Below are positions 17,760 through 62,294 of a DNA stretch of 64,000 bases, in pieces. This DNA comes from Bdellovibrionota bacterium. Lineage in GTDB: Bacteria; Bdellovibrionota_C; UBA2361; JBGSMV01. The position numbers and the translations under genes were made by a program. Position 1 is the first letter of the stretch. Every line of letters begins with the position of its first letter. The notes below the pieces were generated by a model, which was not told the DNA's origin, did no database searches, and saw only the letters and a program-made list of their open reading frames with translations. The stretch is from positions 1 to 64,000 of the forward strand of contig JBGSMV010000026.1 of NCBI GenBank assembly GCA_041739995.1. The letters run 5' to 3'.

Positions 17760-18596
17760 ACGTTCGGGGCCTACCTGTGACACCTGCAAGCACTCGTTTC
17801 TTGTAGCCTTTTCATGCAAAAGGAGAGGACTTTGCCCCGCATGCAACGCCAGGCGCGCGGTCAAGTTTGGGTAACACCACTATGACTCGGTGCTTGAGCG
17901 TGTACCGCACGGCTCGACTGAGCTCGCCGAAGTCCGGCACTGCGGCTTTACGCTCCCCAAACGACTCAGGGTGTTTTTCCGGAACGACCGGAGCCTTCTT
18001 GATGTCCTCTTTAAGGCAGCAGGGAGTGCGGTGCAAACCGTCCTTGGGTCGGATACTCAAACCTCAGCACTTATCCTTACTGTGCAGACCGCGGGTGAGG
18101 CGTTGAACTTCAACCCACATCTTCATGGACTGCTCGCCGATGGCACCTTCGACGAAGCCGGAGTCTTCACCCCGTTGGCAGCGATCGATACCGAGCGCAT
18201 GGCGGAGCAATTTAGGGACGGGGTTCTTGCTGCACTGGTCACCCGGGGGCTTATCACCGACGAGGTGCCGGCTCAAATTCTTTCACAGGAGCACGCAGGT
18301 TTCGGTGCGCTTGTCCCGCCGAAGCGTTCTTGCGAAGGGGGATGGGTAGGGGACCCGTTTACGGAGGAAGACCGCATTAGGTTTGTTGCGCGCTATATTG
18401 AGAGGGGACCGCTCTCACTCGAGAAGCTTGATATCGCCGACAACATCGTCGTGTACACCACCAATGACGGACGCACACACGAGTGCGATGCACTAGAATT
18501 CCGAGCGCTCATGTCGTGCCACATGAAACAATCCGGCGGAGTTAGAACTATCTCGGGTAGGTAACTCGATGGGTTAGATCGATTTTCCTATGCCCC
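17760..18596 (+). mobile_element. IS91/ISCR-family transposase pseudogene (copy B, longest) with oriIS-like end
   Basis: Zn-finger CDTCKHSFLVAFSCKRRGLCPACNARR, in-frame TAA at about 17872, then VPH[REP]RHCGFTLPKRLR, NPHLHG (HUH), RYIERGP; ends ttttcctatgccc. Confidence 0.9.
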
Positions 18597-21773: not shown

Positions 21774-22118
21774 CTACCACTCTGTATCGCCGCGATTCTG
21801 ACCGCTTCCAGAACCCGAACCGGACCCAGAACCAGAGGGGCGAATAGTCTTACACTGGCAAGAACCATTGTTGTTCTTCTTGCATTCTATCCGGGAACCA
21901 TCTGCCTTATTGCAAGTGCACTTTGTTTGACTACCTGTGCCTGTGCAGCTGCAGGAAGTCCCCTGACAGGAACACGCGGTGCTTCCAGACCCAGGTATAG
22001 ACGTTTTGCAGTCGACACAATCCGCCGCGGAGGCGTTAGAAGGCAGCAAAGTTGGTGCCGCAGCAGATACTGCCACAAAGGCTAGAGCGAGAAATACGCG
22101 AGAAATAAATGCTTTCAT
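21774..22118 (-). CDS. secreted cysteine-rich mini-protein with (GS)n tail
   Basis: Sec signal peptide ending ASA; 11 Cys with several CxC; GAGGA SD. Confidence 0.85.
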   Translation of the reverse strand: MKAFISRVFLALAFVAVSAAAPTLLPSNASAADCVDCKTSIPGSGSTACSCQGTSCSCTGTGSQTKCTCNKADGSRIECKKNNNGSCQCKTIRPSGSGSGSGSGSGQNRGDTEW

Positions 22119-22159: not shown

Positions 22160-22573
22160 TTAAGTGCGCACACAATTACAGCCCTGGCCGTTACTATTAC
22201 GGGTGCAACGAACTTTAGTCCCATTTCCATCGTCGCACTCTACCCAAGCTCTACTTCCACTCCCACCGGGTGTACAGCCGCCAGTTCCCACGCAGCCGCA
22301 GCCTACTCCACCGTTGGAGGGGAGATTGCATTCGGTCCCTGTACAGTTAGCACTCTGGGCGGCGGCTGAAGAGCCGTCGAAATCACCAGCAAGAATCGAC
22401 TCGTAGAGAGCAATTTCCAGATTCAATGAGTCTAACTCAGGAGAAGGCTGGTACTGCGTCCCGCCAAGGGAAGTCTCAGCGTCGGCGCTGTTCACAAAAG
22501 GGTGAATCCCCGCACTAAAGGTGAGAGCAGCAACTGCGCACACCGCGATCGAAAGCATTATTCGAAATCTCAT
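22160..22573 (-). CDS. secreted cysteine-rich mini-protein with acidic pro-region (paralog of 21774-22118)
   Basis: Signal peptide, acidic spacer, 9-Cys core alignable with its neighbour; ATG at 22573 with GGAG SD. Confidence 0.85.
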   Translation of the reverse strand: MRFRIMLSIAVCAVAALTFSAGIHPFVNSADAETSLGGTQYQPSPELDSLNLEIALYESILAGDFDGSSAAAQSANCTGTECNLPSNGGVGCGCVGTGGCTPGGSGSRAWVECDDGNGTKVRCTRNSNGQGCNCVRT

Positions 22574-22777
22574 AGTCATTCTCCGGGTAAACAAGTAAAA
22601 ACTGCAAAATCCAGACACACAGTTCGATCACGCTTCGCACCTCCCGCGTTGACGCCAGAGCCTTACGAAGACAACCACCTACACAACCAAAAATGAGCAA
22701 TTGATAAAAAAGAGCACAAAGTGAAGAAGGTGCCTAGCGAATCGCTGAATCCCTTCAGGAGGACCTCGGTCGCACCT

Positions 22778-22902: not shown

Positions 22903-24420
22903 ATGCACACTCAAACGAATGCTCGTCGTATGTTTGCTTTGGCCGCGCTTGGAGGCGCCCTGGCAGTAACGGCGAAGAATGGCGCACCACCTGTTGAGTC
23001 ATCTCGAGTCCCTCACGTGGGGACATCCGAAACAGAAGCGCCCTCAGATTTTCCCTCTCTGACGCTCCCGGCTGTAGACAGCCCGGAACTTTCACACGAT
23101 GTAATGCCCACGCTATCCGCTCGGGAGAGACTTGCCGAAGCCACAAGCACCGAGCTTGTGCCGCTTTCAAAAGTTCCAGGGCTAGGCTCCTACGATTGGA
23201 CGGTACGTCTTGCCACAGCCGAGGACCTCGGGAGCGATCAATTCTCATGGCGATTCGATCAAGAGAGCGGCGAACTGTTGGTCCTGGTCCCCGAGATCGA
23301 TCGAAGTTCAGGGGTAAGCTATGTACTCGAAGTACGTACCGAGAAGGGCAGGGCGCTTACTCTTGCCCCCGAGGCTTTCGACAGCTTCTCGTTCATCTTT
23401 GGCTCCCTCGCAGCGGTCGGAGTCGGGGCGGGTGATCCAGCAATTGAACTCGGAGTTCGTCGCTTCGTTTCAGACGAGGCCCAAATCTCATTAGTGGCGG
23501 CGTCGGCCTTCGCGGAGGCGCAAGAGTTGGGTTTCACCGTATTCCCATTCCCAAAGGTAGGCTCGCCCTACGAATGGTCCATGGTAACGAGCACCGAGGA
23601 GAACATCGCGGTTTTGACGGAGAAGTCGGATCTAGTCCGATCCTCGTCATTTGGCGGAAAAGTGTACGTGGTGGAAGTTGGAGCATCGTGGTGCGCTCCC
23701 TGTCGCCATCTTCACAAAGTGCTCTCCCAACTCGTTGAGCAGCACGGAGCTGCGCTTGGGGTAGTATCGGTAAATATAGACAATACCGAATTGTCCGAAT
23801 CCGCTTCCCAGGTTCTTACCGAGCAGCTGCACGACGCGAAGCCCCATGACGCGTGGCACGTGGTTCGAATACCTGGGGATTCAGAGGCGTGGGCACTGCA
23901 AGCACAAGCATTTCGCGGAACGCTCCGCGCCACAGTCCCGATAATCGTGTTAGTCGATGCGAATGGCACAGTAGTCAGCAATTCACTTACCGTGAACCAG
24001 GTTAAAGCCGCAGTCGAACAACTGCTATCCGCAGACGCTTCCTCCGCACAAAGCGGCCCCACCGCAACCGGTACGCCTTCAGGCGCCTTAGGCCCGGTCG
24101 CAAATCCGGCGCCGGAGCGTGAACTCTCACGCTTTACCATGCCGGCAGAAGTCCGGAACATCACACCGCTTTATCTTGGGGTTGATCTGTTCGAACCCGA
24201 TAAGCCACCCGCATCGGTCATTCGAATTGCGGAGGAACGGAACCGCGTTGAAGTTCTTAGGCCGTTTGACGGCGAGTTCTATCAGTCGCTTCGTGCGTTC
24301 GATTTGAATGGGGCCGAAATTCCTCTGACCCCTGTGAACAGAGACGGGCTAATATTGTTTCGCTGCGACACTCCGCAACGTCTTGATACAATCGTGCTTT
24401 ATTCGGGACCAGCACAGTAG
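22903..24420 (+). CDS. exported protein with thioredoxin/TlpA-like domain
   Basis: GKVYVVEVGASWCAPCR...VVSVNID...VPIIVLVDANG; N-terminal RR plus hydrophobic segment. Confidence 0.85.
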   Translation: MHTQTNARRMFALAALGGALAVTAKNGAPPVESSRVPHVGTSETEAPSDFPSLTLPAVDSPELSHDVMPTLSARERLAEATSTELVPLSKVPGLGSYDWTVRLATAEDLGSDQFSWRFDQESGELLVLVPEIDRSSGVSYVLEVRTEKGRALTLAPEAFDSFSFIFGSLAAVGVGAGDPAIELGVRRFVSDEAQISLVAASAFAEAQELGFTVFPFPKVGSPYEWSMVTSTEENIAVLTEKSDLVRSSSFGGKVYVVEVGASWCAPCRHLHKVLSQLVEQHGAALGVVSVNIDNTELSESASQVLTEQLHDAKPHDAWHVVRIPGDSEAWALQAQAFRGTLRATVPIIVLVDANGTVVSNSLTVNQVKAAVEQLLSADASSAQSGPTATGTPSGALGPVANPAPERELSRFTMPAEVRNITPLYLGVDLFEPDKPPASVIRIAEERNRVEVLRPFDGEFYQSLRAFDLNGAEIPLTPVNRDGLILFRCDTPQRLDTIVLYSGPAQ

Positions 24421-27165: not shown

Positions 27166-27636
27166 ATGTTATCAAAATATTCATTCGCAGCAGTCGGGGT
27201 TTCACTTTTTACCTTCTTGTCCGGCGCAGTCCAGGCCCAATCCTCCATTATCCCGATTGAGCTACACTCGTCGGTGTGGATTGAGGACCAGCTCGGCACG
27301 TGGACCGCACCGGTCCGCCTTCTTCACCACTCAGGAGATTTGCTTTCGCCAGATGCGAATAGCGCCAAGTTTTCTCCACCAATTCGAACGACCACTGATC
27401 TTGTAATCTCAATGCCGCCTGGTACGACGGCCATTGGACTCACCGATAATCGAGGCCAAGTCGTCGCAGGAGTTCTTTGTGATAGTCTCGCATGCATTCT
27501 TCGACATCAGGTGGTGGAAAGGGACCCCGACACTCAGCGTGTAATGAGACTGCCAGCCGGAACTTACGTGATTCACATCTCGGATGCTGCGGGAAGCCGG
27601 CAACACAAACTTCGAATTCATTACCCAAACGGGTAG
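27166..27636 (+). CDS. secreted hypothetical protein (beta-sandwich-like)
   Basis: Signal peptide ending AVQA; LPAGTYVIHI C-terminal motif. Confidence 0.7.
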   Translation: MLSKYSFAAVGVSLFTFLSGAVQAQSSIIPIELHSSVWIEDQLGTWTAPVRLLHHSGDLLSPDANSAKFSPPIRTTTDLVISMPPGTTAIGLTDNRGQVVAGVLCDSLACILRHQVVERDPDTQRVMRLPAGTYVIHISDAAGSRQHKLRIHYPNG

Positions 27637-27878
27637 GATCGAAATTGCTCTGAAGTAAGCCGGATACTAGCGTTTACTAAAACGCATTTATCTCTCTTTC
27701 AGCAAACTTTTCTCCTCTGGAGCCGGACTACTTAATCGCCTGCGTAAGATCGGCGGGTTGTGATGGAGGCTTCGAGGTCTTTGGGAAAGTTTCCAAATAC
27801 CCGGCTGAATCGATGGGAGAACTCGAGTAGCCCGGCTCGAGGCACGAAACAACTGCACCCACGAAATCCACGTAAGCC

Positions 27879-28228
27879 TTAGGGAGCTACGATCTCCCAC
27901 TGACCTCCATCGAGGCATCGCTTGGCATCATTCATCACCAGTTTTGTACAAGCGGCCAATCCATCTGCTGCAATATTAAGGCATGCCGCATAGTCAGAGC
28001 GACACTTATGACCACAGAGTCCGATATGTCCGAATGTGCAAGTGCTCATGCAGTAGTGGTACTGCGCTTGCACTGCGAAAGATCACTTTGATTGGTAAGC
28101 CGACAAATTTCGGAAAAACGTGTGAAGGTGTCATAGCAGCCAAGTGCGAGTGCGTAGTCCGCTCTTGCGGTGCTTGCCGAGAGTAATAGTAGCCCGAAAC
28201 ATGCTGACGCTAGGACCCTTTTCGACAT
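27879..28228 (-). pseudogene. secreted 10-Cys peptide split by a 1-nt frameshift at about 28068
   Basis: ORFs 28046-28234 and 27879-28073 join if one base is added in tgc-aa-gcg; signal peptide ending ARA; GAGGTGG SD. Confidence 0.75.
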
Positions 28229-28255
28229 TTCCACCTCTCAATTAACCGATGCTAT

Positions 28256-30244
28256 TTAGCAACCTGCAAACCAAACATTTAAAAACGCGAATATATCAGG
28301 GACTGCTACTGCGCCGGAGCCGTCGAAGTCGGCTCTCATATCAAGAGCAAACCAAGCGGAGAGAAACGCGAAGAGGTCTACGTTATCGACTACGCCATTT
28401 TGATTGAAGTCAGCGGGGCAAAGATCCGGAGGGTCGATGCTCAGCTGCGCAACTACCACCGCCTCATCAAATTGAGTAGCAGTCCCAAAGTCAGCCACGA
28501 AGCTTGCTTCACCGCTATCGTTGAGCGTCTTGGTTGTGCCCATCGCGAGAGACCGAATCTGCACATTACCCGCAGGTAGAGTGATAGAACCCCCTTCAAC
28601 GGCAACGATTCGGCCCGTGCTGCTGGGGTTACCCGTGAACACCGCTTTTCGCGCACTCAGTAGGCTGTCGTTCACATCGACCACTGTTGCAGTAAAAACA
28701 ATTTGTCCCTGTGCATTTACTTGCAGGTCCACGCCAGTTTCTGAAATGTTAGTCACTCGGTGAGAGCCTAGGACGTCGCCTTCGCGCACTATCAGTCGCA
28801 GCCCGGCTGGATCGCTCGGTGCCCAAAGAAACACTGCGGCATCGTTTGCGCTGGTGACTCCAGTGCCTTGAAGTTTAGCGGCGAGTGCAACGTGACCAGC
28901 TGTGCCGATACGTGCTCCGAGACCGAAGTTTGAGTTCAGTATCCGCACGCCTGCTGGTAGTGCGGGGAGATCCACGCCACCTCGCCCAACAAGTGTATGA
29001 ACGCCGTTATGAGCATGGATGATCGTTCCGTTGTTAGTGCTGTTCGCGCCACCACCGACAATCATGGCGGAGTAAATGACCGCATTGGAGTCCGTCAGAT
29101 TTACAAAGGATGTTCCTGAACCAAGCCCAAAACCGCCGATGGTGGCACCAGCGATCGGCGAATTGTCGGTCAAGCGGACAATGCGCGAAAGCTGTCCAGC
29201 GCGATCGACCCAGATACCCCAATTATTGCCAACAGCTATGCCGGGTCCGGCCATTGAAGCTGAGAAGGCTAGGTCTCGATCTCGATTTGTGGAAATACGA
29301 GCGCTACCACCCCAAACCAGAGAGAACGCCACTCCTGGTGCTTCTGTGGGAATCGGAAAGCCGGAGCGAGCGACTGTGCGAACTTGCGCACCTGCGCCAG
29401 TGGTAATGGCCTTGTCGGTATTGATCGAAACTCCGTTCACCATCACGGTGCCTACACTTGGGCCGGTGAGAGTAGTTTCGTGGGCTGCAATTCCGGTCGA
29501 GCTCACTACGGGAGGATCCATTCCTAAGATGTAGGTGCCAGGAGCTGCGCCAGGTAGTTGGGTATTTGCCATTAGCACAGGAGTAAAACCACTACTTGCC
29601 TGCTGAATTATTGATTGGATCGCTGACCCGACACCGGGTACGTCAACACTGCCTTTTATGACGACTGGGCCTTGTGGGGCGTTGGGTGCTGCAATGTTGG
29701 CACTCATGAGCCAGCGCATGCTCGCACCTGGATACCCCGCGATGTTAATCGGCGTACCGTCTCTTGTGACAAACGTTGTTGATTCAGCGTCGCCGAGCCA
29801 TACTCCTCGATCGTTTACGCCGGACTGCACGCCGCTGCCGGATAGTGAGGCGATATATGTAGCCTGACCGAAATCGTTCATTACCAATCCATAGAGTCCT
29901 GCAAAGTTAACACCTGAGGGCACGCCAGGTGCTTGCGTTGACTGACGCCACACAGGATTGGTGGACAGGGAATTGCCGCAAAACACAGTGAGTGCGGTTC
30001 CTGGTGTGACTCCAGAACCAGCCAGAATTGAGTGAAAGCAAATATCCCCGGAATTTGAGATAATGGGGCGCGAGAGCTCTACGTTGTTACGCACAAGACG
30101 GCTGAACGTGACCGTAGGGCCATAGCTACTCGCCATGCCTGTACGCGCCAAAAGTTCAAATTGATCGGCGCTTGCCGTACTAACAAATGAAATTGAACCG
30201 GCTAGGAGAACTAGAGTTCGGCAGATATAATGAGACTTCCACAT
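28256..30244 (-). CDS. secreted NxxGxxAF-repeat beta-propeller protein with C-terminal GC-type dockerin-like anchor
   Basis: SNSGDICF, NDFGQATY, NAQGQIVF, NDSGEASF repeats; tail CPADFNQNGVVDNVDLFAFLSAWF...ADFDGSGAVAVPDIFAFLNVWFAGC; start MWKSH right after the upstream stop. Confidence 0.9.
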   Translation of the reverse strand: MWKSHYICRTLVLLAGSISFVSTASADQFELLARTGMASSYGPTVTFSRLVRNNVELSRPIISNSGDICFHSILAGSGVTPGTALTVFCGNSLSTNPVWRQSTQAPGVPSGVNFAGLYGLVMNDFGQATYIASLSGSGVQSGVNDRGVWLGDAESTTFVTRDGTPINIAGYPGASMRWLMSANIAAPNAPQGPVVIKGSVDVPGVGSAIQSIIQQASSGFTPVLMANTQLPGAAPGTYILGMDPPVVSSTGIAAHETTLTGPSVGTVMVNGVSINTDKAITTGAGAQVRTVARSGFPIPTEAPGVAFSLVWGGSARISTNRDRDLAFSASMAGPGIAVGNNWGIWVDRAGQLSRIVRLTDNSPIAGATIGGFGLGSGTSFVNLTDSNAVIYSAMIVGGGANSTNNGTIIHAHNGVHTLVGRGGVDLPALPAGVRILNSNFGLGARIGTAGHVALAAKLQGTGVTSANDAAVFLWAPSDPAGLRLIVREGDVLGSHRVTNISETGVDLQVNAQGQIVFTATVVDVNDSLLSARKAVFTGNPSSTGRIVAVEGGSITLPAGNVQIRSLAMGTTKTLNDSGEASFVADFGTATQFDEAVVVAQLSIDPPDLCPADFNQNGVVDNVDLFAFLSAWFALDMRADFDGSGAVAVPDIFAFLNVWFAGC

Positions 30245-30245
30245 A

Positions 30246-32246
30246 TTAACAACCCGCAAACCAAACATTTAAAAACGTGAAGATATCCGGCACAGCGATC
30301 GCACCGGATCCATCGAAGTCGGCGCTAATATTTAGAGCAAACCAAGCGGAGAGAAATGCGAAGAGATCTACGTTGTTGATTATGCCGTCGCGATTAAAAT
30401 CCGCGGGACACGCCGGGGCGTCCTCTAAGATAGAGGCTACAAACACCGCTTCATCTCTCGGAGTGCTGCTAAAAGTCGCAGCGATAGCAACTTCACCGGA
30501 GTCATTTAGCGCGCTCTTCGCGGCGATACGAAGGTCAGTAATTGTTGGCGAGGTGCTATCACTTAGATTAATCGCGGAGCCTTTAGCTGCCAGAATTTGA
30601 ACAGCGCCGGATGGCGATATTCCAAGCAGTCCTGCTTGCGCAGTTGCTGTCGGATTGCTCGCTGGTGAAAGGGTTACTGACACCACAGCGTATCCGTTGC
30701 TGGTAAGCTGCATGTCGGCGCCGTTGTTTACAAACGACTTCAACACATGATTACCGATGATATCGCCTTCACGTGCAATGAGTTGTAATCCGGAAGCCTG
30801 ACGATGACGGCAGAGCACCTCGTCGTTTGACGTAGTCACACCTGTCCCTGAAAGCTGCGAGACGAACATGACGTGATCATCTCCGGCGGTTCTCATCGTA
30901 CGCGGCATCGCGGTGCGCAAGAAAGTAGCTCCGGCCGGTAATGCGCTTTGCGGTACGCCGGCGCGAGCGATCAAGGTGTGTTGACCAGAAGCACTTAGTT
31001 TATAGATTCCGGATACGTTAGCGATGGTTACTTCGGTTCCGCTAAAGTATGTCCAAAATACGGCATCGTCGTTGTCCATGACTGCTAGAGAGCCGCTAGA
31101 TGCATTGCCGAGAAGTGAATCAAAATTCACGCCAGTTCCTGCGGCGAGGGCAGGTTCACCGCCACGCGCAAGTAGCGAAACACCAGCAGAGGTGGAGCGC
31201 CACAGTCCTGTGGCACTTGAAGTTGTTACACCGGGACCGATAACTCTTGCGGAAAATGCGATATCTCCGCGGGCATTCACGGCTGGGAGACTTGTGTTTC
31301 CAGGGAGTGTTTGAAACACCACCCCCGCAGCGGTCCCCGGGGCCTGTGTCGCGGTGCGAGCAACAATCTCTCGTGATCCCGGCGCAGTACGGAGCATAAC
31401 CAAGTCGTTAGAAATCGTTGCACCATTTACTACGATCGACGAAATATTCGGTCCGTACATCCGAGCAGACGTTGCTCCACGGCCAGAAGCGCCGATTTGA
31501 TGATATGCATCGGAGAACCATGTGTTTGGAAGTCCTGGAGCATCGCCGAAGGACCAGGAAACCATTTCGAAGTTCGCGCCGGTACGTGCCCATATGCCGG
31601 TGGTGTATGGGATCGTGACTGGCTGTCCCGGATAAGAGGTAACGACGGCGTTGATGGCTAAATCGCTCCCCATCGAGCCGTCCAATCCACGCATACCGGT
31701 AACAGATCGAAGAAATCCGGTGGGGCCAGTTCCCTGAGCTGGTGCAACCAAACGAAGAGCGAGTGAAGACTGAGACATGTCGGTTTCCCAAATGCCATCG
31801 CTGTTGATTCCCGGAGTAACCGAGGGTCCTGTGATGTATGCGGTGTGGAATAAGCGTCCGTAGGAGTCGGTCATCGCTTCGCCTAACGTTTGAACTACCG
31901 TTCCCTGTTCTGTTCCCGTTGCGACGCCGCCCTGACGTGCGACTACTCGACCTGCCCCATTTTTATGCAGCAACCATAGTCCACGATCTGTGCTGGGTGC
32001 TGAGGCTCCTTGGTTAAGGGATGCAAACAGTGCAACTAAATCGCCTGCCATCATAGGCGCAGGAAGTGCTATCTGTGCTGAAGTAGTATTATCTCTATAA
32101 AGCCCGTTATAAGTATATCCTGCGACATCAACTGCGCTTTGACCGGAGCGTGCGACTAGTTGCGCCGGTGCAGCAAACGCGGATTGCACGAGAGACATTG
32201 AGATTAAGAACGATGAGAAGCTTCGACCAACATTTCGTAACCACAT
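30246..32246 (-). CDS. secreted NxxGxxAF-repeat protein with GC-type dockerin-like anchor (paralog of 28256)
   Basis: NARGDIAF, NDSGEVAI repeats; near-identical ...WFAGC tail. Confidence 0.9.
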   Translation of the reverse strand: MWLRNVGRSFSSFLISMSLVQSAFAAPAQLVARSGQSAVDVAGYTYNGLYRDNTTSAQIALPAPMMAGDLVALFASLNQGASAPSTDRGLWLLHKNGAGRVVARQGGVATGTEQGTVVQTLGEAMTDSYGRLFHTAYITGPSVTPGINSDGIWETDMSQSSLALRLVAPAQGTGPTGFLRSVTGMRGLDGSMGSDLAINAVVTSYPGQPVTIPYTTGIWARTGANFEMVSWSFGDAPGLPNTWFSDAYHQIGASGRGATSARMYGPNISSIVVNGATISNDLVMLRTAPGSREIVARTATQAPGTAAGVVFQTLPGNTSLPAVNARGDIAFSARVIGPGVTTSSATGLWRSTSAGVSLLARGGEPALAAGTGVNFDSLLGNASSGSLAVMDNDDAVFWTYFSGTEVTIANVSGIYKLSASGQHTLIARAGVPQSALPAGATFLRTAMPRTMRTAGDDHVMFVSQLSGTGVTTSNDEVLCRHRQASGLQLIAREGDIIGNHVLKSFVNNGADMQLTSNGYAVVSVTLSPASNPTATAQAGLLGISPSGAVQILAAKGSAINLSDSTSPTITDLRIAAKSALNDSGEVAIAATFSSTPRDEAVFVASILEDAPACPADFNRDGIINNVDLFAFLSAWFALNISADFDGSGAIAVPDIFTFLNVWFAGC

Positions 32247-32249
32247 AAC

Positions 32250-33980
32250 CTACACCCCAAACCATGCCGAAAGGTACGCAAAAATATCCGATGAATTGAT
32301 AGTTCCATCAGTCAAGAAATCTGCTTGTGGCGATGAGCTGAAGTAAAGCGCCAAGAAAGCAAAGAAATCTTGCAGCGTGATGACGAAATCGTTGTTCGTG
32401 TCGAGTCGAAAATTCCGAATGCTTCGAAGTTCAGGAAAGTCGCCGGTAGTAAAGCTCCAGACCTGCGCGAGGTCGAAGTCAGCGTAAAGCGAAAGGTCCT
32501 GCATCATTCGCGATTGCGTTGCGGGCGTGCCTTCACCGTTGTTAAAGGACAATAGATCGCTGTTGTAGAAAGCGGATTGAACAACGGAATCCAGGAACGG
32601 CACACCTGTAATGCCACCGATATATTCTGCGTCGCCGACTGGACCTGAAAAGACAACGCGATCAATCATCGAACCGTAAGCGAGACCTGCAATTCCACCG
32701 AGATTGGTATACTCGTTAGCGCTCATGTAGCTTCGCACAGAAGTCAAAGCGTACGAATCTGTGACAGACCCTTCCGCTGTAGCGAAGCTGGAGAGCTCGC
32801 CGACAATGCCCCCAACGGGGCCCCGCCCAGAAATCGCCGACTGGCGAACTGCACATCTTTCAATAGAAGTTGGTGATGAACCCATCGAGTCGACCCCCGG
32901 AGACCCACTGCCGATTATTCCCCCCGCGGCCCAGTTGCTCTGAATTTCTCCGATGAAAAGGCTGTCGCGAAATGTCGCACCTTCGGAGCGAGCCACTAGG
33001 CCGCCAGCTTGCCATGCGGCGCTGAGATTCGTCGTTACCTTAGCCTCTTCAATAACCGTGCCGGTAAGAGCTTTTACTACGAGTCCTGCCGCTCTGGAGG
33101 TTGTGTGGGGGAAGAGCGAGTTTGAGACAATAATACTTGTAAGGTGAGATCTGGTGGATTCCAGGGCGAACCCCGCAATCTCTTCAAGGTTAAGAGAATG
33201 CTCGGCGTCGAGGCGAATCCGGACTCTCTGCGCTTGGGATTCAAAAAACGAGTCCGTCACACCTGCGAACTTTAGAAAGTTTGAATTTTCGTCGCGCACT
33301 ATATGGACATGCATGTCTTCGAGCGTGGAATTCGAAATGCTACGGGCGAGACCGCCAAGGGTGCCTGCTCGTGCTTCTATGGTGAAGTCTCGCAAGGTGG
33401 AGTTTGTGATAGTACCCGCGAGGACTCCACCATCGAGGTTTGAGGTCCGAACCGCAGAAGCACGAATTATAATGTTTTCGAGAGCTGATTGGTGTACTTC
33501 TGCGGCAAGTACTCCGGCACGTTGGTCACCAACATACTGTGCGTTTGTTATCTCGAGTTGAGATATGTGTGCACCGTCGAGTCTAAGAAACAATCCAAAG
33601 GCACTCGAATGATTTGCGACGGGTCGCAGGCCCAAAATTCTGTGGCCTTGACCGAGATACACTCCTCGGAATCCGCCTACCGCAACCTGACCGTCTGGAT
33701 GCAGTCCAATCGGGTATGAACCAGAGGAAGGAAGTTCGATGTCGGCACATTGACGATATCGTAAGGTTGACGCGTTGTTCTCGAGCATGTCGTCCGTGAT
33801 GCGGCGCAAATCATCGGCAGTCCAAATTTCGGTGTGGTCGGCAGGGCCGGGGCAGGTGCTTCGTGAGGTTGCTATTGCGACTTCATGCAATGGCTTTGCG
33901 AAGGTTGACTCAGTAGGAACCAAGAGGGCGATTGCTACTGCCGCGATTACTGATGAGTGTTTCATAACGAAATGCTCCAT
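32250..33980 (-). CDS. secreted GLUG-motif beta-helix protein with dockerin-like tail
   Basis: IWTADDL...YRQCADIEL, FRGVYLGQGHRI, VGGIVG / LGGIAG / IGGITG motifs; tail DTNNDFVITLQDFFAFL...DIFAYLSAWFGV. Confidence 0.85.
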   Translation of the reverse strand: MEHFVMKHSSVIAAVAIALLVPTESTFAKPLHEVAIATSRSTCPGPADHTEIWTADDLRRITDDMLENNASTLRYRQCADIELPSSGSYPIGLHPDGQVAVGGFRGVYLGQGHRILGLRPVANHSSAFGLFLRLDGAHISQLEITNAQYVGDQRAGVLAAEVHQSALENIIIRASAVRTSNLDGGVLAGTITNSTLRDFTIEARAGTLGGLARSISNSTLEDMHVHIVRDENSNFLKFAGVTDSFFESQAQRVRIRLDAEHSLNLEEIAGFALESTRSHLTSIIVSNSLFPHTTSRAAGLVVKALTGTVIEEAKVTTNLSAAWQAGGLVARSEGATFRDSLFIGEIQSNWAAGGIIGSGSPGVDSMGSSPTSIERCAVRQSAISGRGPVGGIVGELSSFATAEGSVTDSYALTSVRSYMSANEYTNLGGIAGLAYGSMIDRVVFSGPVGDAEYIGGITGVPFLDSVVQSAFYNSDLLSFNNGEGTPATQSRMMQDLSLYADFDLAQVWSFTTGDFPELRSIRNFRLDTNNDFVITLQDFFAFLALYFSSSPQADFLTDGTINSSDIFAYLSAWFGV

Positions 33981-33994
33981 TTTACGTTGCAGAG

Positions 33995-35449
33995 TTACCC
34001 AGGGCTCGAATGTGCGAACCATGCAGTCAGGAACGCAAAAATGTCGGCAACGTTGACTGTGCCATCTCGATTAAAGTCCCAAGGGTTAGTGCACATACCA
34101 CCGCCCTCGCTGCACTCTGGGTGAGTCGACTGAACGAAGAGGCTGTAGTCTCCGCCTGAGCTGGCATCGAAGATGGCGCGGGTACCAAAGCGCTCGACTT
34201 GAGTGCAGATAGCTGAATCACACGGCTGGCCATTGCGGTGAATCTGGACGGCATTCCAACACAGTGGAAGATTCTCAAAGGTGAGGCGAGCTGAGCCGGC
34301 CAACGGCCCAGACTGCGGCAGCTTCATCCGATTATTTTCAACGACAAACTCGCTCTCTGGTGAGCTAGAGAAAAGGTTCTCGCCTGTGCCGGGAGAAGTG
34401 AAGACGCGACTGATAGCAATTGAACCGTGTGTGGAGCGCTTGAAGGTAAGTTCGGTGGGGACTGGGCCCAGGGCTGAAATCGCGCTCGCCTGAACGTAGT
34501 ATCGACGAATCTCTGAGTCCTCAAGTGTTAGCGAGGCGTAGCCTGGTGAGTCAAGAAGGTTGCTGCCAGAGAGACGATAATAGTTGCCACCAAGACGAAA
34601 ATCATATCGTGGAGAAGGGCCGATGAACGAAATGTTTCGTAGTCGCATTCCTCCGCAGCGGGAACCAGGCAGAACCGGGTCGAGCTGTGGGCTTGGCGGT
34701 CGAGGATAGCCTAGTGGGTCTATCTCGCACAGCGACGTCATGAGGTACTGATCTACTGGTCCGCTCGGTGGAGCTGACGCGGGTGTATCGCTGGTAAACT
34801 GGACATTCTGAATGGTGCTGTTGAGCCCGCTCCAGATGAAGCGAGGAATGGATTGGCCGAGAGAACTTCCTCCATACACGGTGACACCGTCTACGAGACT
34901 ATTAACTAAATAGCCGGTGTCTAGGTACCCGTAGGGACTTCTGATTGAGATGTTTCTAAAGGTCACGTTGTCAAGGTAGCGGAGCGTGTGACCTCCGTCA
35001 GCGCCGATTCTGGGTGACCATGCACTAAAGCTAATCACGCCTCGGTGGTACAAAGATTGGCCACCGGAGGTCTCGATATTCTCAAGGACGATGTTTCTAA
35101 GTATTGAGGTCGTAGATCCTGGGACCCCACGATGAGCGTAAGGAAAATTTACAAATCGAATATTCTTAATTGAGATGTTTTCAAAATTATAATTGGAAGT
35201 GCCGAATGAGTTGAACCCAAAGCCTGAGGCAAGTTCAGAACTTCCGGTGTACGTTACCGAGTGGCCCTGTCCATCGAGTGTCACGTTACTGCCGATCCCG
35301 AATCCGGTCGTGGGGCACTCTATGTCTTGAGTAAGTTCGTAGGTTCCTGCGGTAAGCGCTTGGCAGCTTGATATCGGCGTTGCGTGCGCGAGGCTCGCGC
35401 CGAAACCAAACATAAGTGCAATCAGGCCTATTTCATATATTCGTTTCAT
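33995..35449 (-). CDS. secreted pectin-lyase-like beta-helix protein with half dockerin tail
   Basis: ISSCQ...GTYELTQDI...NVTLDGQGHSV, ENISIKNI repeats; DFNRDGTVNVADIFAFLTAWFA. Confidence 0.85.
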   Translation of the reverse strand: MKRIYEIGLIALMFGFGASLAHATPISSCQALTAGTYELTQDIECPTTGFGIGSNVTLDGQGHSVTYTGSSELASGFGFNSFGTSNYNFENISIKNIRFVNFPYAHRGVPGSTTSILRNIVLENIETSGGQSLYHRGVISFSAWSPRIGADGGHTLRYLDNVTFRNISIRSPYGYLDTGYLVNSLVDGVTVYGGSSLGQSIPRFIWSGLNSTIQNVQFTSDTPASAPPSGPVDQYLMTSLCEIDPLGYPRPPSPQLDPVLPGSRCGGMRLRNISFIGPSPRYDFRLGGNYYRLSGSNLLDSPGYASLTLEDSEIRRYYVQASAISALGPVPTELTFKRSTHGSIAISRVFTSPGTGENLFSSSPESEFVVENNRMKLPQSGPLAGSARLTFENLPLCWNAVQIHRNGQPCDSAICTQVERFGTRAIFDASSGGDYSLFVQSTHPECSEGGGMCTNPWDFNRDGTVNVADIFAFLTAWFAHSSPG

Positions 35450-35481
35450 GTCCCGTGTTCTCCCCCATGTATCCTTTCACC

Positions 35482-35520
35482 AAAAAAGCGGTGCTCACCT
35501 ATGGTCGGTGAGCACCGCTT
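35482..35520 (-). terminator. rho-independent terminator
   Basis: aagcggtgctcacc / ggtgagcaccgctt perfect stem plus U-tract on the minus strand. Confidence 0.8.
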
Positions 35521-35530
35521 CTGAATCTCA

Positions 35531-37543
35531 TTATAACCGACCGAAGTAGAGCGCTAGGAAGGCGAAGATATCCGGCACTTCTACCGTCCCGTTCAGGTCT
35601 ATGTCCGCTCGTCTATCTCCAGCAAAGAAGGCCGAGAGAAAGGCAAATATATCCGGCACAGACACTACGCCATCTTGGTTAAAGTCCGCCGGGTCAAACC
35701 CGAAGGCGGAAGGACTCAGAAGGAGAATCACTTCTGAGTGTTCTTCCTCCTGTGCTTCTAGGACCCCGACCATCACCAGCGAGCCTGAGTCGGAGGCAAC
35801 GTTCCTCTTGGACGTGTACTGGAAGGGGCTCCCAAAGCCTTGGACTACTCTTTCCTGGTTTGCACTATCGAGGACGGTGCTGATGCCAGGTACCAAGGGA
35901 AGCGACAGTGTTCCCGCTGAGTTAATCGCGAGGAGTGCGTGCCGAGGAGATGTGTTCGGGCTATCTCCTAGAGCACGAACCCTTACATGAGCGAACGCCC
36001 GTCCAGCAGAGAGCGCAGTGCCATTTATATTCATTGAGTAATCTACGGTGAGGGAATAGTCCCCAACAAGTTGACCGCTACGCACCGCGGTGCGTCCTCG
36101 CTGCGGCGACCAAAGGACCAACATTGTGGGGCCATTGGATGATTCTTGCACCTTCGCAAGCATGGTCCCATCATGAGCAAAGCTCACATGTTCCGGGTAT
36201 GGAGCGGATCCAAGTCCGAAGCCAAGTCCCGAGTGCGCGGCAGAACTTTCAAGAATAATCTCAGCCGAGCCATCGAGACGAATTCTCACGATACCCCAGC
36301 CGCTTCGCAAGGTTCCATCCGTATTCAGTATCGAAGTATGAATAAACAGGTCACCAGAATCCGACAGGAATCCTTTGAGATAATTGTGATCATCATTCAA
36401 GGACCCGAGGGCGATGGTTACCTCGTTCAAGAATCCGATGCGAAAGAGTCCCGAGGGACCATTGAAGAGCTTGCCATTAAAGGCTTCACGTCTCAGGGTT
36501 CCCGTACGGTCAGAGTACACCTCGATGCCTCTGCAGGTCGTGCCTGTATGAAACGCCACGTGGCCGGAGCTGTTTAGCTGTGCGCGTGCGTATTCAGTGC
36601 CATAGACGAGACAGTCCGAAGGCTCCTCAGACACATGCAGTCCGTCCCGGATAATAAGTTCAAGACTACCTTCGTGTGCGCGCCACAGACCGCCGTTGTT
36701 GTGTGCATTCACTTTGGCTCCAGAGAGCGTCGCGCTGAAGACAACGTCGCCCTGCGAATTGGCGTTGCTCAATGTGCCAAGCGGAGAGGGGATGTGGTCG
36801 AAGCTCGCATCACCTGTTCCAGGAGCAAGCATGCCGGTACGTACAACTTCCGTGAGGCCTTCGGCGGTGCGTCGAAGAATTGCGCTGTCGGTCCCTGCGG
36901 CGTTCAGGCGTACCGCAAGAAGTTGCTCGCCTGGTCTGTCTTTTGGTTCAATTGCTCCTTGGATGGAGGATACTGAGAGCGAGCCAAGGGCGGATTGGTT
37001 TTGCGCAAGAAGATCTGAGGGGCCTTCAAGCTCCGCCCGAACGATGCCCAGGTTGTTGCCTTGATCAATGCTGTCACCCGCAAGGCGACACATAAGAAGC
37101 GCTTCGCCTTCACTCGTGATGGTGGGCTTGAAACGTGCATTGATGGCAGAACTCAGCAGTGCCGAGATATCCTCTCCGCCAGAACTCTGTAGAAGATCGA
37201 GATCGCCGAGCAGATGCTGTACTCCTGCCTTTGCGTGGTAGCGATACATTTGAACTCGGCCGTAATCAGCGGGGTCCCCGTTATCAGTGCGTGCCCCGAA
37301 AAGTACGTCTCCGCGTTCGTTGATCTGCGGGTATAGGCCTGTGCCCCCTGTGCCGTGGCCGACAAACAAGGAGTTCAGCTGCTCATGTTGCGGATGTGCC
37401 GCTGAAATTGCTTGGGCGTCAGCGATAACCCGTAAGTCTTGAGCCTTGATAGTTTCTGGCAGACCCAGCATGGACCCGGCGGTCAAAGTACTGATAAAGA
37501 CGCCAGTCGAAAAGGCACGTAAAAACCTCATAACACCTCTCAT
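35531..37543 (-). CDS. secreted NxxGxxAF-repeat protein with dockerin-like tail
   Basis: NERGDVLF, NSQGDVVF, NSSGHVAF; ADFNQDGVVSVPDIFAFLSAFF...ADIDLNGTVEVPDIFAFL. Confidence 0.9.
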   Translation of the reverse strand: MRGVMRFLRAFSTGVFISTLTAGSMLGLPETIKAQDLRVIADAQAISAAHPQHEQLNSLFVGHGTGGTGLYPQINERGDVLFGARTDNGDPADYGRVQMYRYHAKAGVQHLLGDLDLLQSSGGEDISALLSSAINARFKPTITSEGEALLMCRLAGDSIDQGNNLGIVRAELEGPSDLLAQNQSALGSLSVSSIQGAIEPKDRPGEQLLAVRLNAAGTDSAILRRTAEGLTEVVRTGMLAPGTGDASFDHIPSPLGTLSNANSQGDVVFSATLSGAKVNAHNNGGLWRAHEGSLELIIRDGLHVSEEPSDCLVYGTEYARAQLNSSGHVAFHTGTTCRGIEVYSDRTGTLRREAFNGKLFNGPSGLFRIGFLNEVTIALGSLNDDHNYLKGFLSDSGDLFIHTSILNTDGTLRSGWGIVRIRLDGSAEIILESSAAHSGLGFGLGSAPYPEHVSFAHDGTMLAKVQESSNGPTMLVLWSPQRGRTAVRSGQLVGDYSLTVDYSMNINGTALSAGRAFAHVRVRALGDSPNTSPRHALLAINSAGTLSLPLVPGISTVLDSANQERVVQGFGSPFQYTSKRNVASDSGSLVMVGVLEAQEEEHSEVILLLSPSAFGFDPADFNQDGVVSVPDIFAFLSAFFAGDRRADIDLNGTVEVPDIFAFLALYFGRL

Positions 37544-43795: not shown

Positions 43796-45775
43796 ATGGA
43801 TATGAAACAGTTGACTACAACGCGCAATGCCGGGTTTGCTGAGATTGAGCCAACTATCGACTTTCATCAGAGCTCTCTGCCTGCTCGACAAAGCTGGTTT
43901 AGGCGATATCCGGAACTTGGTGCCGCTGCCGCAATTACAGCTTCCGTGCTCGGGATGGCTTCCTCCGCGCGTGCGGGGCAAGATCGAAGTCAAGATCAAA
44001 ATTCACGCATAGTGGAACGCACCGATTCGCCGCTTGCAGAGCGAGAGACGCCTGGAAAATTTGTCCTTCTCGAAAATGCTGGACACTTTGTACTGAGCGG
44101 ACTCGACCGCATGATCGGTCGCGAGCGACCATTACGAACCGTCACCGTGTGGAGCACCAATATCCCGCACACAGTCGCGGTAGAACCTACCTGGGCTCTC
44201 GTGGAAGCCGACACAGAATCAACTGCTACCTTGCATGAGGGAACGAACGTGAAGCTTCCCCCCGTAGTTCATGGCTTAGAGTACTCTTCCGACAACCAAT
44301 TCGCCTTTCTCTCTATGCTGGTTGAACTCTTTCCTTGTGGTTCGGACGGACAACTGGCGCCAGAGTTCACCGCTCTTGCGCGAAATGCGATACGAGCGCG
44401 CAATGAAACTAATGAAGTAAGTACCACAGCGATTGATCGCTGTCGGGTGAGTGGGTTCAAAGTCGAATTCCTCAATGCAAATACGGGGGAGGTCCTCGCC
44501 AACTATGTGACCCCGTACGAGTTCGAGAGCGGAACTCCATACCAAGTGCGTTTCCCGCTGAGAGTGCCGGCAGATGATGTGCGGGAGCTTCTCGAAAGGA
44601 TTGATGCAGGTCAAATAATGGCACGCTTCCAGCCGACCGCATCTGTTGTGCAGAAGGACGTGGCTAGCGCTCTCGTTCGAGTGACTCAAGAGGCATTTTT
44701 GTCCGCGATGGAAACATTTAAGACCTCCCACTCCGGGCACACGGGGCTCTTTACAGACAACGAGAAAAATGACCTTCAGACAGTTCTTCGCATAAAAGTT
44801 GAGGAGATCGTTCACGCAAAACCCGCCGCACTTGCGGCGACTCTACTTGAGCGTGTGCAGCGACTTCAGATGCCAAATTTCTGGACGCCAAGCGAAGTGG
44901 TGACGCTCGCTCAGCTCTCGTCTGATCAGCAAGCTCGTGCTGAAGATCATCTTAAGGCTCTAGTTGATACGAGCGAAAAGTCCCGTGAACAATGGGATCG
45001 CGAAGTGCGAGGCACTGAAGATGGGAAAACTACTACCTGGAAAGTTGGTGGCGGTGCAGGGCTAAATTTCGGCTTTGTTAAGATCGGAGGCGGAGGCGGG
45101 AGAAATGTCACCGAATCCGATCTCAAGTTTCTTGAAGATGGCACTGATTTGGTCGTAACTAGAATTGACCATAAATCTCGATATGTAGAGATGGGGGCTC
45201 GCGTATCCCGAATCGATCGCGCACGCCTTAGTCACGAGTACCTTGCGGGGACGTTCGTGATCGACACCGTTGAAGTCGATGGTTTTATGAAGTCGGTGGA
45301 GGTGCCAGTAACGTTCACCGCTGGCCGTGCGCACGACGATGTTGCCCAAGCCGAGGAGATTATTCGCCTTCGACTGGAGAACGCGCAGAAGAAGGCAACT
45401 ATCGGAGAGATCTCCTCGACGAATGCAGATCTGAAAATCGACATAAAGAAACTGAGTGCTGAGACCAAGTCTCAGAAAAAGGCCAATGAGACGCTGAAGA
45501 AGGAAGTGAGTTCCGCGCGTGCTGACGCGAAGGCAACCCGCTTCCAACGGGATAGACTATTGCAAGCAGTCGTCCGCTACTGCCGGCCCGACAGGGGAGG
45601 GATTTACTATGTTACCTACGGGCGGTTGCATGAGCTTGCCAGGTTTCTCGGCAACTCAGCGGACAAGCAAGTTCGTGCGCTATTGGAGCGCAGTTTTGTC
45701 GCGTATTGGGGGAAGCAGAAGGACTTCAAGGACGTCGCTTTACCACCACCGAACTTACAGAGTCCAAATAAGTAG
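43796..45775 (+). CDS. secreted protein, distant paralog of 38953, with Gly-rich beta-hairpin and coiled coil
   Basis: Signal-like segment ending SARA; TTTWKVGGGAGLNFGFVKIGGGGGRNVT; heptad-rich tail. Confidence 0.8.
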   Translation: MDMKQLTTTRNAGFAEIEPTIDFHQSSLPARQSWFRRYPELGAAAAITASVLGMASSARAGQDRSQDQNSRIVERTDSPLAERETPGKFVLLENAGHFVLSGLDRMIGRERPLRTVTVWSTNIPHTVAVEPTWALVEADTESTATLHEGTNVKLPPVVHGLEYSSDNQFAFLSMLVELFPCGSDGQLAPEFTALARNAIRARNETNEVSTTAIDRCRVSGFKVEFLNANTGEVLANYVTPYEFESGTPYQVRFPLRVPADDVRELLERIDAGQIMARFQPTASVVQKDVASALVRVTQEAFLSAMETFKTSHSGHTGLFTDNEKNDLQTVLRIKVEEIVHAKPAALAATLLERVQRLQMPNFWTPSEVVTLAQLSSDQQARAEDHLKALVDTSEKSREQWDREVRGTEDGKTTTWKVGGGAGLNFGFVKIGGGGGRNVTESDLKFLEDGTDLVVTRIDHKSRYVEMGARVSRIDRARLSHEYLAGTFVIDTVEVDGFMKSVEVPVTFTAGRAHDDVAQAEEIIRLRLENAQKKATIGEISSTNADLKIDIKKLSAETKSQKKANETLKKEVSSARADAKATRFQRDRLLQAVVRYCRPDRGGIYYVTYGRLHELARFLGNSADKQVRALLERSFVAYWGKQKDFKDVALPPPNLQSPNK

Positions 45776-45842
45776 GCCTGCGCACCGAGTGGGTCTCATT
45801 GAATCAACGAACATGGGCAACGAAAACAGGAGGGGAATTCGT

Positions 45843-47327
45843 ATGGATCAGACTACGTCCGGAGGACATCGACAGATATTGAAGCTTTGCGCGGTGATTG
45901 CTGCGACGGCCACGTCTTCGAATGTCAGCTATGGGAGTTCGTCTACAGAGCAGACAGCCGATACAAGAGAAGTTCTCGGCGCTCTTCGGGCACCCCAAAC
46001 ACAATCAGACGGCCAGGCACCGTTCTTTGAAGAGCTTGCCGAGCTCCTGCAGAATGCCCAACGTGAGTATGCCAGTGCGAAGCTGCAGCCCCCAACAGAT
46101 GACAGCGGAAGGCAGCCTCCACAATCTCGTCTGTCTCCTGGCCCCGAGCGAGAGGAGTCGCCTCACGTGCTGCGACTACCTCCTCGCCGGTTCTCTTTGC
46201 CAGATCGGTCCAATGAGACAAGGAGGCGAATGGACTCGTTCTTGAAAAATGGTCAGGAACGCACGGAGAGTGATGAGCGCTCCCTCAGCGATTTCGTGCA
46301 GCGCCTCGAGAAGGAGACCTCAGAGGGGCTCGAAGACGGTCCAAAGAAAAAGCAGGGATCTAAGGAGCCTGATTCGAGACGAGAGATCTCGGCACAGCGA
46401 GCACAAACTTCACCCCAAACCGGACCATCGCCTTCAGCGGAAGCTCCCAGGTCCCAGGGAGTCGCCCCCAAGCCGAAGGGAACACCACCCAGACCGCAAC
46501 CCTCTGCGTCTGACCAGAATATCCGAGAGAACGATGAGAAGCTTGCTGAGGCCAGGAATCGTGAACGTGTCGCACTGCAAGTGCGCAGCCTAGGGGACGG
46601 GCAGGTGGGTCCTGCGGTTGGTGTCGAAGCCTCAAAGCCCGAATTTCGTGCGGAGCCGATCTACCAACTGCTGGGGGTTGGAACAACGCCTGACAAGATG
46701 CTCGCAGGCGCCGAAGCTCTTGCGGAAGCAACTCGTCGCCCCGTGATTCCGATAAATAATGCGAGTGCTGTACAGCGGCTGGCTGAGGAAATTGAGCGTC
46801 AGACCAAATACGCGCCCGACTCGCTCGCAGCAAGGCTCGACCGCACTGCAGCTGAAATCTTCGGCAGGATTGAAGATGGCGCACGAACAGTCTTCGACCG
46901 CACGATGCCCGCGGAATTTGCCGTTGAGCCCTCCACTGAGACGATTGCGCTTCTTGCCAATCGACAGATCGCTAAGGAAAAAAAGTTTTTTCTTGTCGCG
47001 CATAGCCAGGGAAGTGTGATCGCTCAGAACGCGATGATTCTCCTTGCCCATCACCTTGACGAGGAAGTACAGGCGAAGATTATCACTGAGGCTGAAAAGA
47101 AAGCTGCGCTTGCGCGCATAACAATATTTGCCGTCGGGGCCTTCGCCCGCGAAAGCGATTGGCCATCGGGACTAAAAATTGTCTCCCTGAATAGCAAAGA
47201 TGACCCGATCTCTTCGTTAGGAGAGCACAATGATTGGTTCCAGAAGGAGGGGCAAAACTTCACTTTCGACTCCCATAACTACTTGGAGCGCTATATTCCT
47301 ATGATTACACAGAAGTTGGATCGATAA
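45843..47327 (+). CDS. exported protein with disordered linker and C-terminal alpha/beta-hydrolase (lipase-like) domain
   Basis: LVAHSQG nucleophile elbow, NSKDDPI, SHNY; ATG at 45843 with AGGAGG SD. Confidence 0.8.
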   Translation: MDQTTSGGHRQILKLCAVIAATATSSNVSYGSSSTEQTADTREVLGALRAPQTQSDGQAPFFEELAELLQNAQREYASAKLQPPTDDSGRQPPQSRLSPGPEREESPHVLRLPPRRFSLPDRSNETRRRMDSFLKNGQERTESDERSLSDFVQRLEKETSEGLEDGPKKKQGSKEPDSRREISAQRAQTSPQTGPSPSAEAPRSQGVAPKPKGTPPRPQPSASDQNIRENDEKLAEARNRERVALQVRSLGDGQVGPAVGVEASKPEFRAEPIYQLLGVGTTPDKMLAGAEALAEATRRPVIPINNASAVQRLAEEIERQTKYAPDSLAARLDRTAAEIFGRIEDGARTVFDRTMPAEFAVEPSTETIALLANRQIAKEKKFFLVAHSQGSVIAQNAMILLAHHLDEEVQAKIITEAEKKAALARITIFAVGAFARESDWPSGLKIVSLNSKDDPISSLGEHNDWFQKEGQNFTFDSHNYLERYIPMITQKLDR

Positions 47328-59104: not shown

Positions 59105-59330
59105 ATCGTAATGCTCCGCCTGTGTGGCCGGGCAGCGTGGAATGAGGGCTTAGGAGATGAAGCGCTTTGCACTATAAATTCGACCAATCCAACTGCAGTG
59201 GCTAAGTGCAGAGTACGACCGAAAAGTTTAGATAATAGGGAGGTAGGGAGAAGTGATAGATGAGACTGGCGACACCGCTGGCGACACTTCCGTGTCCTAT
59301 CAAGTCAGTGTCGTATCAAATCGATCGTCC

Positions 59331-59420
59331 TCTTCCCTCCGCCGGTATTATCCGGTTCAGGTGCAAAGGGTTTCATTGCTACTTCGCAATGTCTCAGGCG
59401 CTTTGGCGCCACCCCCAAGG
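59331..59420 (-). ncRNA. TPP riboswitch
   Basis: Minus strand GGGGTG...CTGAGA...ACCCTTTGCACCTGAACCGGATAATACCGGCGGAGGGAAG. Confidence 0.92.
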
Positions 59421-59529
59421 AACACGTGCCCATTGGCACAAAAACTAACTGGGTGCACAAGTAGCAGCTTTGGACCTTGGCAGGCAAGAGTTCAGAATAG
59501 CAGCAGCTATAAGGGTGCGAGCAGGCTGG

Positions 59530-60860: not shown

Positions 60861-60933
60861 CACGCCCGGAGGGAATCGAACCCCCAACCTACGGATTTGG
60901 AATCCGTCGCTCTACCAATTGAGCTACGAGCGT
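60861..60933 (-). tRNA. tRNA-Trp(CCA)
   Basis: ACGCTCG/CGGGCGT acceptor, ACGGA-TTCCAAA-TCCGT anticodon arm, GTTCGATT T-loop; CCA end not encoded. Confidence 0.93.
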
Positions 60934-60966
60934 ACCTGCTACGAACTTAACACAAATCTCCAGCGC

Positions 60967-61090
60967 TCCGTAGGTTGGGCTCCCTTCGGAGAAACACAAG
61001 GCTCGCTAACTCGCCTCACGTCCTACGGATTTGGAATCCGTCGCGTTCTACCACCGTAGCTCAAGTAGTTGAGCTACGAGCGTATCTGCT
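60967..61090 (-). pseudogene. partial duplicate of tRNA-Trp (5' half plus leader) with palindromic insert and inverted fragment
   Basis: cctacggatttggaatccgtcgc and ttgagctacgagcgta.ctgct repeat the real gene; tccgtaggttggg is an inverted copy. Confidence 0.75.

Positions 61091-62218: not shown

Positions 62219-62294
<76 letters not shown>

Follow-up and report, generated by a model that had tools for sequence, protein, structure and literature searches.

Gene Arrangement at the Locus

The stretch of DNA analysed here, termed the window, spans 64,000 nucleotides of a contig from a Bdellovibrionota bacterium. Its minus strand holds, from 28228 to 27879, an open reading frame (ORF) of 60 codons for a signal peptide and three cysteines and an ORF of 64 codons for seven cysteines, the two being one base out of frame. 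This pair of short ORFs fills a 619-nt gap between the convergent genes at 27166-27636 (+) and 28256-30268 (−). The ORF of the N-terminal half occupies 28234..28046 (−), with the ATG at 28228 as its likely start and a TGA stop at 28048-28046, and reads as a signal peptide followed by DYALALG-C-x10-C-x10-C-KRS... and the stop. The ORF of the C-terminal half occupies 28073..27879 (−), ends in a TAA at 27881-27879, and reads ...YHY-C-x3-C-x7-C-x3-C-x6-C-x10-C-x10-C-LDGGQWEIVAP.

The features of a small exported protein follow one another along the strand. A Shine-Dalgarno-like site, GAGAGGTGG, is read from the sequence at 28231..28239 (−), ahead of the ATG at 28228. The start codon and a 23-codon Sec-type signal peptide lie at 28160..28228 (−), with a basic n-region (Lys, Arg), a hydrophobic core, and A-R-A before the aspartate of DYALALG. 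The boundary was set by eye with the −3/−1 rule, the established basis for placing signal-peptide cleavage. What would be the first arm of a hairpin, from DYALALG to the third cysteine, is encoded in frame 0 at 28071..28159 (−) and contains three cysteines with spacing 10-10. The break lies at 28062..28070 (−), where one base is missing relative to homologues and the frame passes from 0 to 2; it is located by repair of the cysteine spacing and by an invariant Y-x-Y-C. The rest of the first arm, the turn, the second arm, and an 11-residue tail are assigned by alignment with homologues to frame 2 at 27882..28061 (−), up to the stop codon (27879..27881, −). Directly after the stop, a consensus scan marks a weakly indicated terminator-like hairpin at 27857..27877 (−); the scan returned 2 such sites against 1.7 expected, and the folding is no better than that of shuffled sequences (z 0.16). 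A scan for promoter-like sites found none.

Upstream of the hairpin gene is a same-strand cluster of five genes (28256..37543, −), defined by Pfam and NCBIfam hits and by ORF coordinates. A GC-type dockerin domain (NF041540) is found in four of the five, three of which also carry DUF7453 or NxxGxxAF repeats. The 484-aa product of 33995-35449 (−) has no family match and ends in a single dockerin-like repeat (...DFNRDGTVNVADIFAFL...), where its neighbours have two; the end of this gene overlaps the start of the next by 28 nt, with no continuation in another frame. The gaps and overlaps between successive genes, the hairpin gene included, are 81, −28, 3, −23, and 27 nt. The hairpin gene is thus placed 27 nt past a 670-aa GC-type dockerin gene on the same strand and is the last of a six-gene cluster, a layout that fits its description in the first-pass annotation as the last gene of the dockerin operon. 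The spacing by itself, at this one locus, makes co-transcription and co-export with the dockerin surface proteins probable. Dockerin-bearing proteins have been discussed for freshwater Planctomycetes (PMC6461901).

Several other features of the window are recorded here in their own right. Two small proteins encoded at 21774-22118 (−) and 22160-22618 (−) have signal-peptide-like N-termini and C-terminal parts rich in cysteine and in Gly/Ser/Thr. They share the pattern C-x-C...GS...EC...NG..C-C and look like paralogues; the 152-aa Cys-rich protein of the pair has no Pfam or NCBIfam match. The product of 21774-22118 has 11 cysteines and a (GS)n run, and its gene is overlapped on the opposite strand by a 145-aa ORF, probably a spurious one. 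About 3.5 kb from the hairpin gene, 22903-24420 (+) encodes 505 aa with a thioredoxin-like domain (Redoxin / TlpA / DsbE-like) at ~240-366, which could be an extracytoplasmic thiol:disulfide oxidoreductase. A 224-aa ORF at 17890-18564 (+) matches the Y2_Tnp putative transposase family (E 5e-8) and is possibly a mobile-element remnant. Five tRNA genes are clustered on both strands at 60861-62699. A TPP riboswitch at 59316-59426 (−), whose 67.9 bits exceed the gathering score of 54.3, immediately precedes 56963-59104 (−), the gene of a TonB-dependent receptor with a Plug domain; the pairing suggests thiamine-regulated outer-membrane uptake. The large ORFs of the window, many of 540-1000 aa, are mostly without a Pfam or NCBIfam family: 14 of the 20 ORFs scanned have no Pfam match at E <= 1e-5, and 11 of 12 have no NCBIfam match at E <= 1e-3.

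Intact Homologues and Reconstruction of the Gene

The first-pass annotation had proposed that restoring one base at about 28068 joins the two ORFs, and had suggested an HMM search as a check. That search was run with the C-terminal half alone as query, exhaustively with HMMER, against 1.84 billion cluster representatives (~15 billion proteins) at E <= 0.001. Of the five matches obtained, two are small and intact: P0001, of 115 aa, and P0002, of 112 aa. The query aligns to residues 55-114 of P0001 (E 4.2e-11) and to residues 53-104 of P0002 (E 1.1e-10; BLASTP E 4e-20). The N-terminal half, which was absent from the query, aligns to residues 6-55 of P0001 (E 5e-10) and to residues 7-53 of P0002 (E 1e-10). 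On two intact proteins, then, the halves line up in order and meet at the break, and these alignments show them to be parts of one gene. Identity between P0001 and P0002 is 45%, and each shares 35-57% with the window halves over the aligned parts. The signal peptides of both homologues show AxA and then Asp at the position aligned with the window copy. The remaining three matches, P0003 (3322 aa), P0004, and P0005, are tandem-repeat proteins that lack the cysteine pattern and were set aside as compositional matches.

The position of the break can be narrowed by a repair test, in which one N was inserted at each position that leaves the frame open (28047-28085). Insertion anywhere in 28053-28070 gives ten mature cysteines with the spacing 10-10-6-3-7-3-6-10-10. 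Insertion at 28071-28085 or at 28047-28052 gives nine cysteines, Cys3 or Cys4 being lost, and the symmetry is gone. Deleting two bases instead of inserting one produces x5, not x6. Both homologues have C-x6-C exactly where the repair predicts it. Since Y-x-Y-C is invariant in both and must be kept, the missing base is narrowed to 28062-28070. Coding signal changes at the same place: by a codon-usage score trained on the 24 window ORFs that reach at least 300 aa, frame 0 scores highest on the 5' side of the break and frame 2 on the 3' side. The repair test and the homologue alignments together bear out the proposed join.

It had further been claimed that the symmetry appears only with the repair. 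The full 10-10-6-3-7-3-6-10-10 pattern is indeed obtained only with an insertion at 28053-28070, but of the nine spacings the insertion supplies just the first 6; 10-10 and 3-7-3-6-10-10 are already present in the raw frames.

Cysteine Pattern and Symmetry

P0001 and P0002 have 12 cysteines each, with spacing 3-10-10-6-3-7-3-6-10-10-3, a perfect mirror, so that cysteine spacing is mirror-symmetric in all three family members. For ten cysteines placed randomly in 93 residues the chance of a mirror is P ~5e-6 (analytic; one in 500,000 simulations), and for the 12-Cys pattern of the homologues it is P ~6e-7. Expressed as residue indices, the sum of Cys k and Cys n+1-k is constant within each of the three proteins, at 136, 130, and 136.

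Among the 12 cysteine columns, the window copy is without the first and the last, which are replaced by Leu in the N-terminal motif and Gly in the C-terminal motif. These two would be partners in the predicted ladder, and the pattern is suggestive of one correlated loss, a single event. The earlier count of five cysteine pairs thus holds for the window copy, whereas the ancestral family has six, given the 12 cysteines of both homologues. Besides its ten cysteines, the window copy keeps the motifs YxYC, STC, IG, CxH, CR, IA, and CL.

The cysteines are also ordered around the helix axis. On a helical wheel, those of each arm fall within 0-100 degrees, in agreement with the earlier statement that all of them lie on one helix face. 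F/A/Y/L/I/V residues border this face, while the other side of the helix is polar. The mature net charge is about 0 to −3.

Predicted Fold and Proposed Mechanism

A structure prediction, also suggested in the first-pass annotation, was made with AlphaFold2 for the two intact homologues from a four-row alignment containing three independent sequences. The model of P0001 consists of a helix at 8-62, a loop at 63-70, and a helix at 71-108 (mean pLDDT 85.3, pTM 0.65), and that of P0002 of a helix at 3-59, a loop at 60-67, and a helix at 68-105 (mean pLDDT 86.9, pTM 0.68). Scored in blocks of 10 residues, both models have a pLDDT of 93-98 along most of the mature chain, with 89 in the turn and 72-90 towards the C-terminus. 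The predicted loop sits inside the central x7 in both homologues, as the symmetry requires. The family is therefore predicted to be a long two-helix hairpin, and the antiparallel helical hairpin put forward earlier agrees with the helix-loop-helix modelled for both homologues.

A separate model of P0001 is available in the ESM Atlas (pTM 0.69, pLDDT 0.82), and its nearest structures are long helical proteins; feature matches there score <= 0.81, which is under the lead level. Foldseek searches of the PDB place colicin receptor-binding domains, ESAT-6/CFP-10, MacA, and an anopheline anti-platelet protein among the neighbours. Of the 209 and 367 matches listed at E <= 10, none reaches E <= 0.001.

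The proposed mechanism begins with export. The Sec-type signal peptide would be cleaved after AxA. A twin-arginine motif is absent from all three N-termini (window copy, P0001, and P0002), which points to Sec export in an unfolded state, and export in the unfolded state favours oxidation. The mature chain of ~92 residues would then fold as a single antiparallel alpha-helical hairpin with arms of ~38-40 residues each, joined by a Gly/Pro-containing turn of 7-8 residues. On each helix the cysteines would face those of the other, in exact register. Once in the oxidising environment outside the cytoplasm, they would bond across the two helices as nested disulfides, the outermost pair enclosing all the others. 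This would give six rungs in the intact homologues and five in the window copy, and a rigid, very stable rod. The central CX3C-x7-CX3C would be a staple of the alpha-hairpinin type that the other rungs extend.

We infer the nested ladder from the register of the cysteines, their amphipathic setting, the route of export, and the joint loss of the outer pair. The reading as a whole is that of a helical hairpin exported by Sec and zipped by nested disulfides, five in this copy and six in the homologues, whose gene is the last of the dockerin cluster and is broken here by a one-base deletion or an assembly error. We regard it as likely, with some reserve.

Alternative Explanations

As assembled, the window copy would give only a 37-residue mature fragment with three cysteines. 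We favour a real one-base deletion over an assembly error, so that the copy would probably be a recent pseudogene. The window has 31 ORFs of at least 200 aa, up to a maximum of 997 aa, and every one of them is open. A second frameshift was sought in the truncated dockerin gene at 33995-35449 and none was found; the ORF simply ends after one dockerin repeat. Because the long ORFs are intact and the truncated dockerin gene is not frameshifted, the assembly looks clean and a real mutation is favoured. Two further long ORFs on one strand, 43796-45775 (+) and 45519-47327 (+), are in different frames and overlap by 257 nt; neither has a family match, and the overlap may reflect either a mis-called start or another frameshifted gene.

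The same evidence bears on the chief competitor of the deletion, namely that the organism carries an intact gene and that the base was lost in sequencing or assembly. Single-base indels are the commonest assembly error, and the copy retains its other ten cysteines and the shared motifs, the break and the lost outer pair apart. Set against this are the location of the break outside any homopolymer, the open state of the large ORFs throughout the 64-kb window, and the negative result for the second-break candidate. An error is a possible explanation, and appreciably the less probable of the two.

A different kind of alternative accepts the hairpin and questions the disulfides. The cysteines could stay reduced, and the hairpin, alone or as a four-helix-bundle dimer, would carry Cu(I) or other thiophilic ions in a row between paired thiolates, much like the copper storage proteins (Csp). 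A Cys-lined helical interface is how those proteins bind Cu(I), and ten to twelve cysteines lie here on one helical face at i+4, i+7, and i+11. An invariant histidine is located inside the CX3C after the turn, Tyr/His/Met are near the cysteine face, and the loss of a whole layer (both outer cysteines) would likewise be correlated. The models show two helices, not four, and neither Pfam nor NCBIfam gives a match, Pfam even at E up to 10. An exact one-to-one cysteine register is needed for disulfides and not for a thiolate-lined core. Exported Csp1 uses a Tat signal (PMC7558416), whereas the three signal peptides here are without twin arginine, so that their proteins would enter an oxidising space unfolded. 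A homodimer run with two copies of residues 24-115 (alignment A2) scored 0.00 against a mark of 0.42, which speaks neither for nor against a four-helix-bundle dimer. On balance we consider metal binding unlikely and retain the disulfide ladder.

A further conceivable role for the stapled hairpin is to anchor the neighbouring GC-type dockerin proteins outside the cell, as their small partner or scaffold. It would then be a cohesin substitute and a new structural class, with six nested disulfides, twice as many as in the 6C alpha-hairpinins. To our knowledge, no partner of the GC-type dockerin has been identified. The GC-type dockerin domain (NF041540) itself is absent from both gene halves and from P0001 and P0002 in NCBIfam. 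We offer this role as speculation of low probability.

Recoding, which the first-pass annotation had listed as an option, is very improbable. In it, a programmed shift (ribosomal frameshifting or transcriptional slippage) would yield the full protein from the sequence as assembled, and the frames do overlap by just 28 nt, with protein-level conservation in both. The shift required would be −1 (or +2), however, and 28047-28085 contains neither an X XXY YYZ heptamer nor a homopolymer; both homologues, moreover, came up in the searches as single proteins that span both halves (115 and 112 aa). That both ORFs are chance open frames in the 619-nt gap and no gene exists is refuted by the matches of both halves to two intact proteins (E 1e-10 to 4e-20) and opposed by the signal peptide, the Shine-Dalgarno-like site, and the frame-specific codon signal, even though neither half is among the predicted proteins of a 5.8-billion-cluster collection (lengths 33-202) and the codon scores are −0.02 and 0.00 against a mean of 0.17 for long genes.

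Distribution of the Family

As far as the searches made here extend, the hairpin proteins are a very rare and unannotated family of small exported proteins, with three members found counting the window copy. Profile searches of the 5.8-billion-cluster collection recovered 2 of 19 candidates with alignment A2 and 2 of 191 with A1, and nothing besides P0001 and P0002. A search with the C-terminal half for longer proteins gave 1 candidate, and none scored. P0001 is found on one contig (3.3 kb) and P0002 on three, the longest of 51.7 kb.

Two scans of species-representative genomes returned no relative. The first gave 55 pattern matches, none confirmed, and the second gave 46 matches with 2 loci, both spurious. 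One locus (L001) lies on the opposite strand inside a 401-aa ORF interpreted as a sugar-nucleotidyltransferase, and was taken as a coincidence; the other (L002) is a chance match of 9 residues within a 401-aa ORF that resembles a transposase. Within the window, tblastn with both halves detected no paralogues.

The family libraries gave the same picture. Pfam returned no families for P0001 and P0002 at E up to 10, and none for the window halves at E up to 0.01. NCBIfam, PHROGs, and PADLOC held no relative, nor did the PDB sequences, where the best E was 0.22. Within the literature collection searched, no paper describes a bacterial multi-disulfide helical hairpin or the GC-type dockerin.

None of the family libraries tried thus reveals the family. 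Its window copy was missed as a gene owing to the frameshift, an example of how small Cys-rich genes may go unnoticed in DNA regarded as intergenic. Given that this copy is probably dead, its immediate importance is limited. If the ladder is real, it would place six rungs over about 55-60 Å and be the bacterial equivalent of a design known until now from plants and mitochondria. Rods of this kind are of interest to protein engineers as hyper-stable scaffolds and would bear on how periplasmic oxidases fold many consecutive nested pairs.

Comparison with Known Systems

The overall shape of the predicted hairpin is shared with several helical hairpins of the PDB: the colicin E3/E9 receptor-binding domain, ESAT-6/CFP-10, the MacA hairpin, FadA, and the anopheline anti-platelet protein. 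Foldseek TM-scores are 0.39-0.49 by query and, for 4okv, 0.73-0.79 by target. We know of no cysteine ladder among such generic long hairpins.

Copper storage proteins resemble the family in having many cysteines along helices that face a helical interface, and some members are periplasmic. Csp1 and Csp3 are described as four-helix bundles whose cysteine thiolates bind 13-20 Cu(I), with exported forms using Tat (PMC7558416). The hairpin family differs in its two predicted helices per chain, its Sec-type signal, and its mirror-symmetric cysteines, and no sequence match joins the two.

Alpha-hairpinins come closer. They are described as plant antimicrobial peptides with the motif C X3 C X4-20 C X3 C and a 6C variant C X3 C X3 C X4-20 C X3 C X3 C (PMC11591084). 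They share with the hairpin family a helix-loop-helix, which is predicted here, and CX3C on facing helices, and the central C-x3-C-x7-C-x3-C of all three proteins fits the 4C motif exactly. As described there, alpha-hairpinins are short plant peptides with four, rarely six, cysteines and two nested disulfides, C1-C4 and C2-C3 (three in the 6C variant). The hairpin family, in contrast, has a bacterial context, a Sec-type signal, a mature chain of ~92 residues, 10-12 cysteines, and a near neutral to acidic charge, and its extra rungs would stand at x6, x10, and x10 (and x3). No sequence relationship between the two was detected.

Twin CX3C and twin CX9C proteins form an antiparallel helical hairpin with two nested disulfides and equal cysteine spacing in both helices. 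The predicted hairpin is like them in both its antiparallel helices and its equal spacing; they are eukaryotic, are oxidised by MIA40, and have only two rungs. Pfam gave no match of CHCH or small-Tim type (P0001 and P0002 at E up to 10; window halves at E up to 0.01). Two papers treat twin CX3C and twin CX9C (CHCH) proteins as components of the mitochondrial intermembrane space (PMC4571295, PMC12114033).

The hairpin family works like an alpha-hairpinin or a twin-CX3C protein and is a member of neither, as its host, its size, its number of cysteines, and the lack of a family match indicate. A six-rung ladder, if real, would be the most heavily stapled helical hairpin known to us. The principle of a disulfide-stapled helical hairpin is familiar; what appears to be new is that an exported protein of a bacterium, from a family absent from the family libraries searched, would carry it to five or six rungs.
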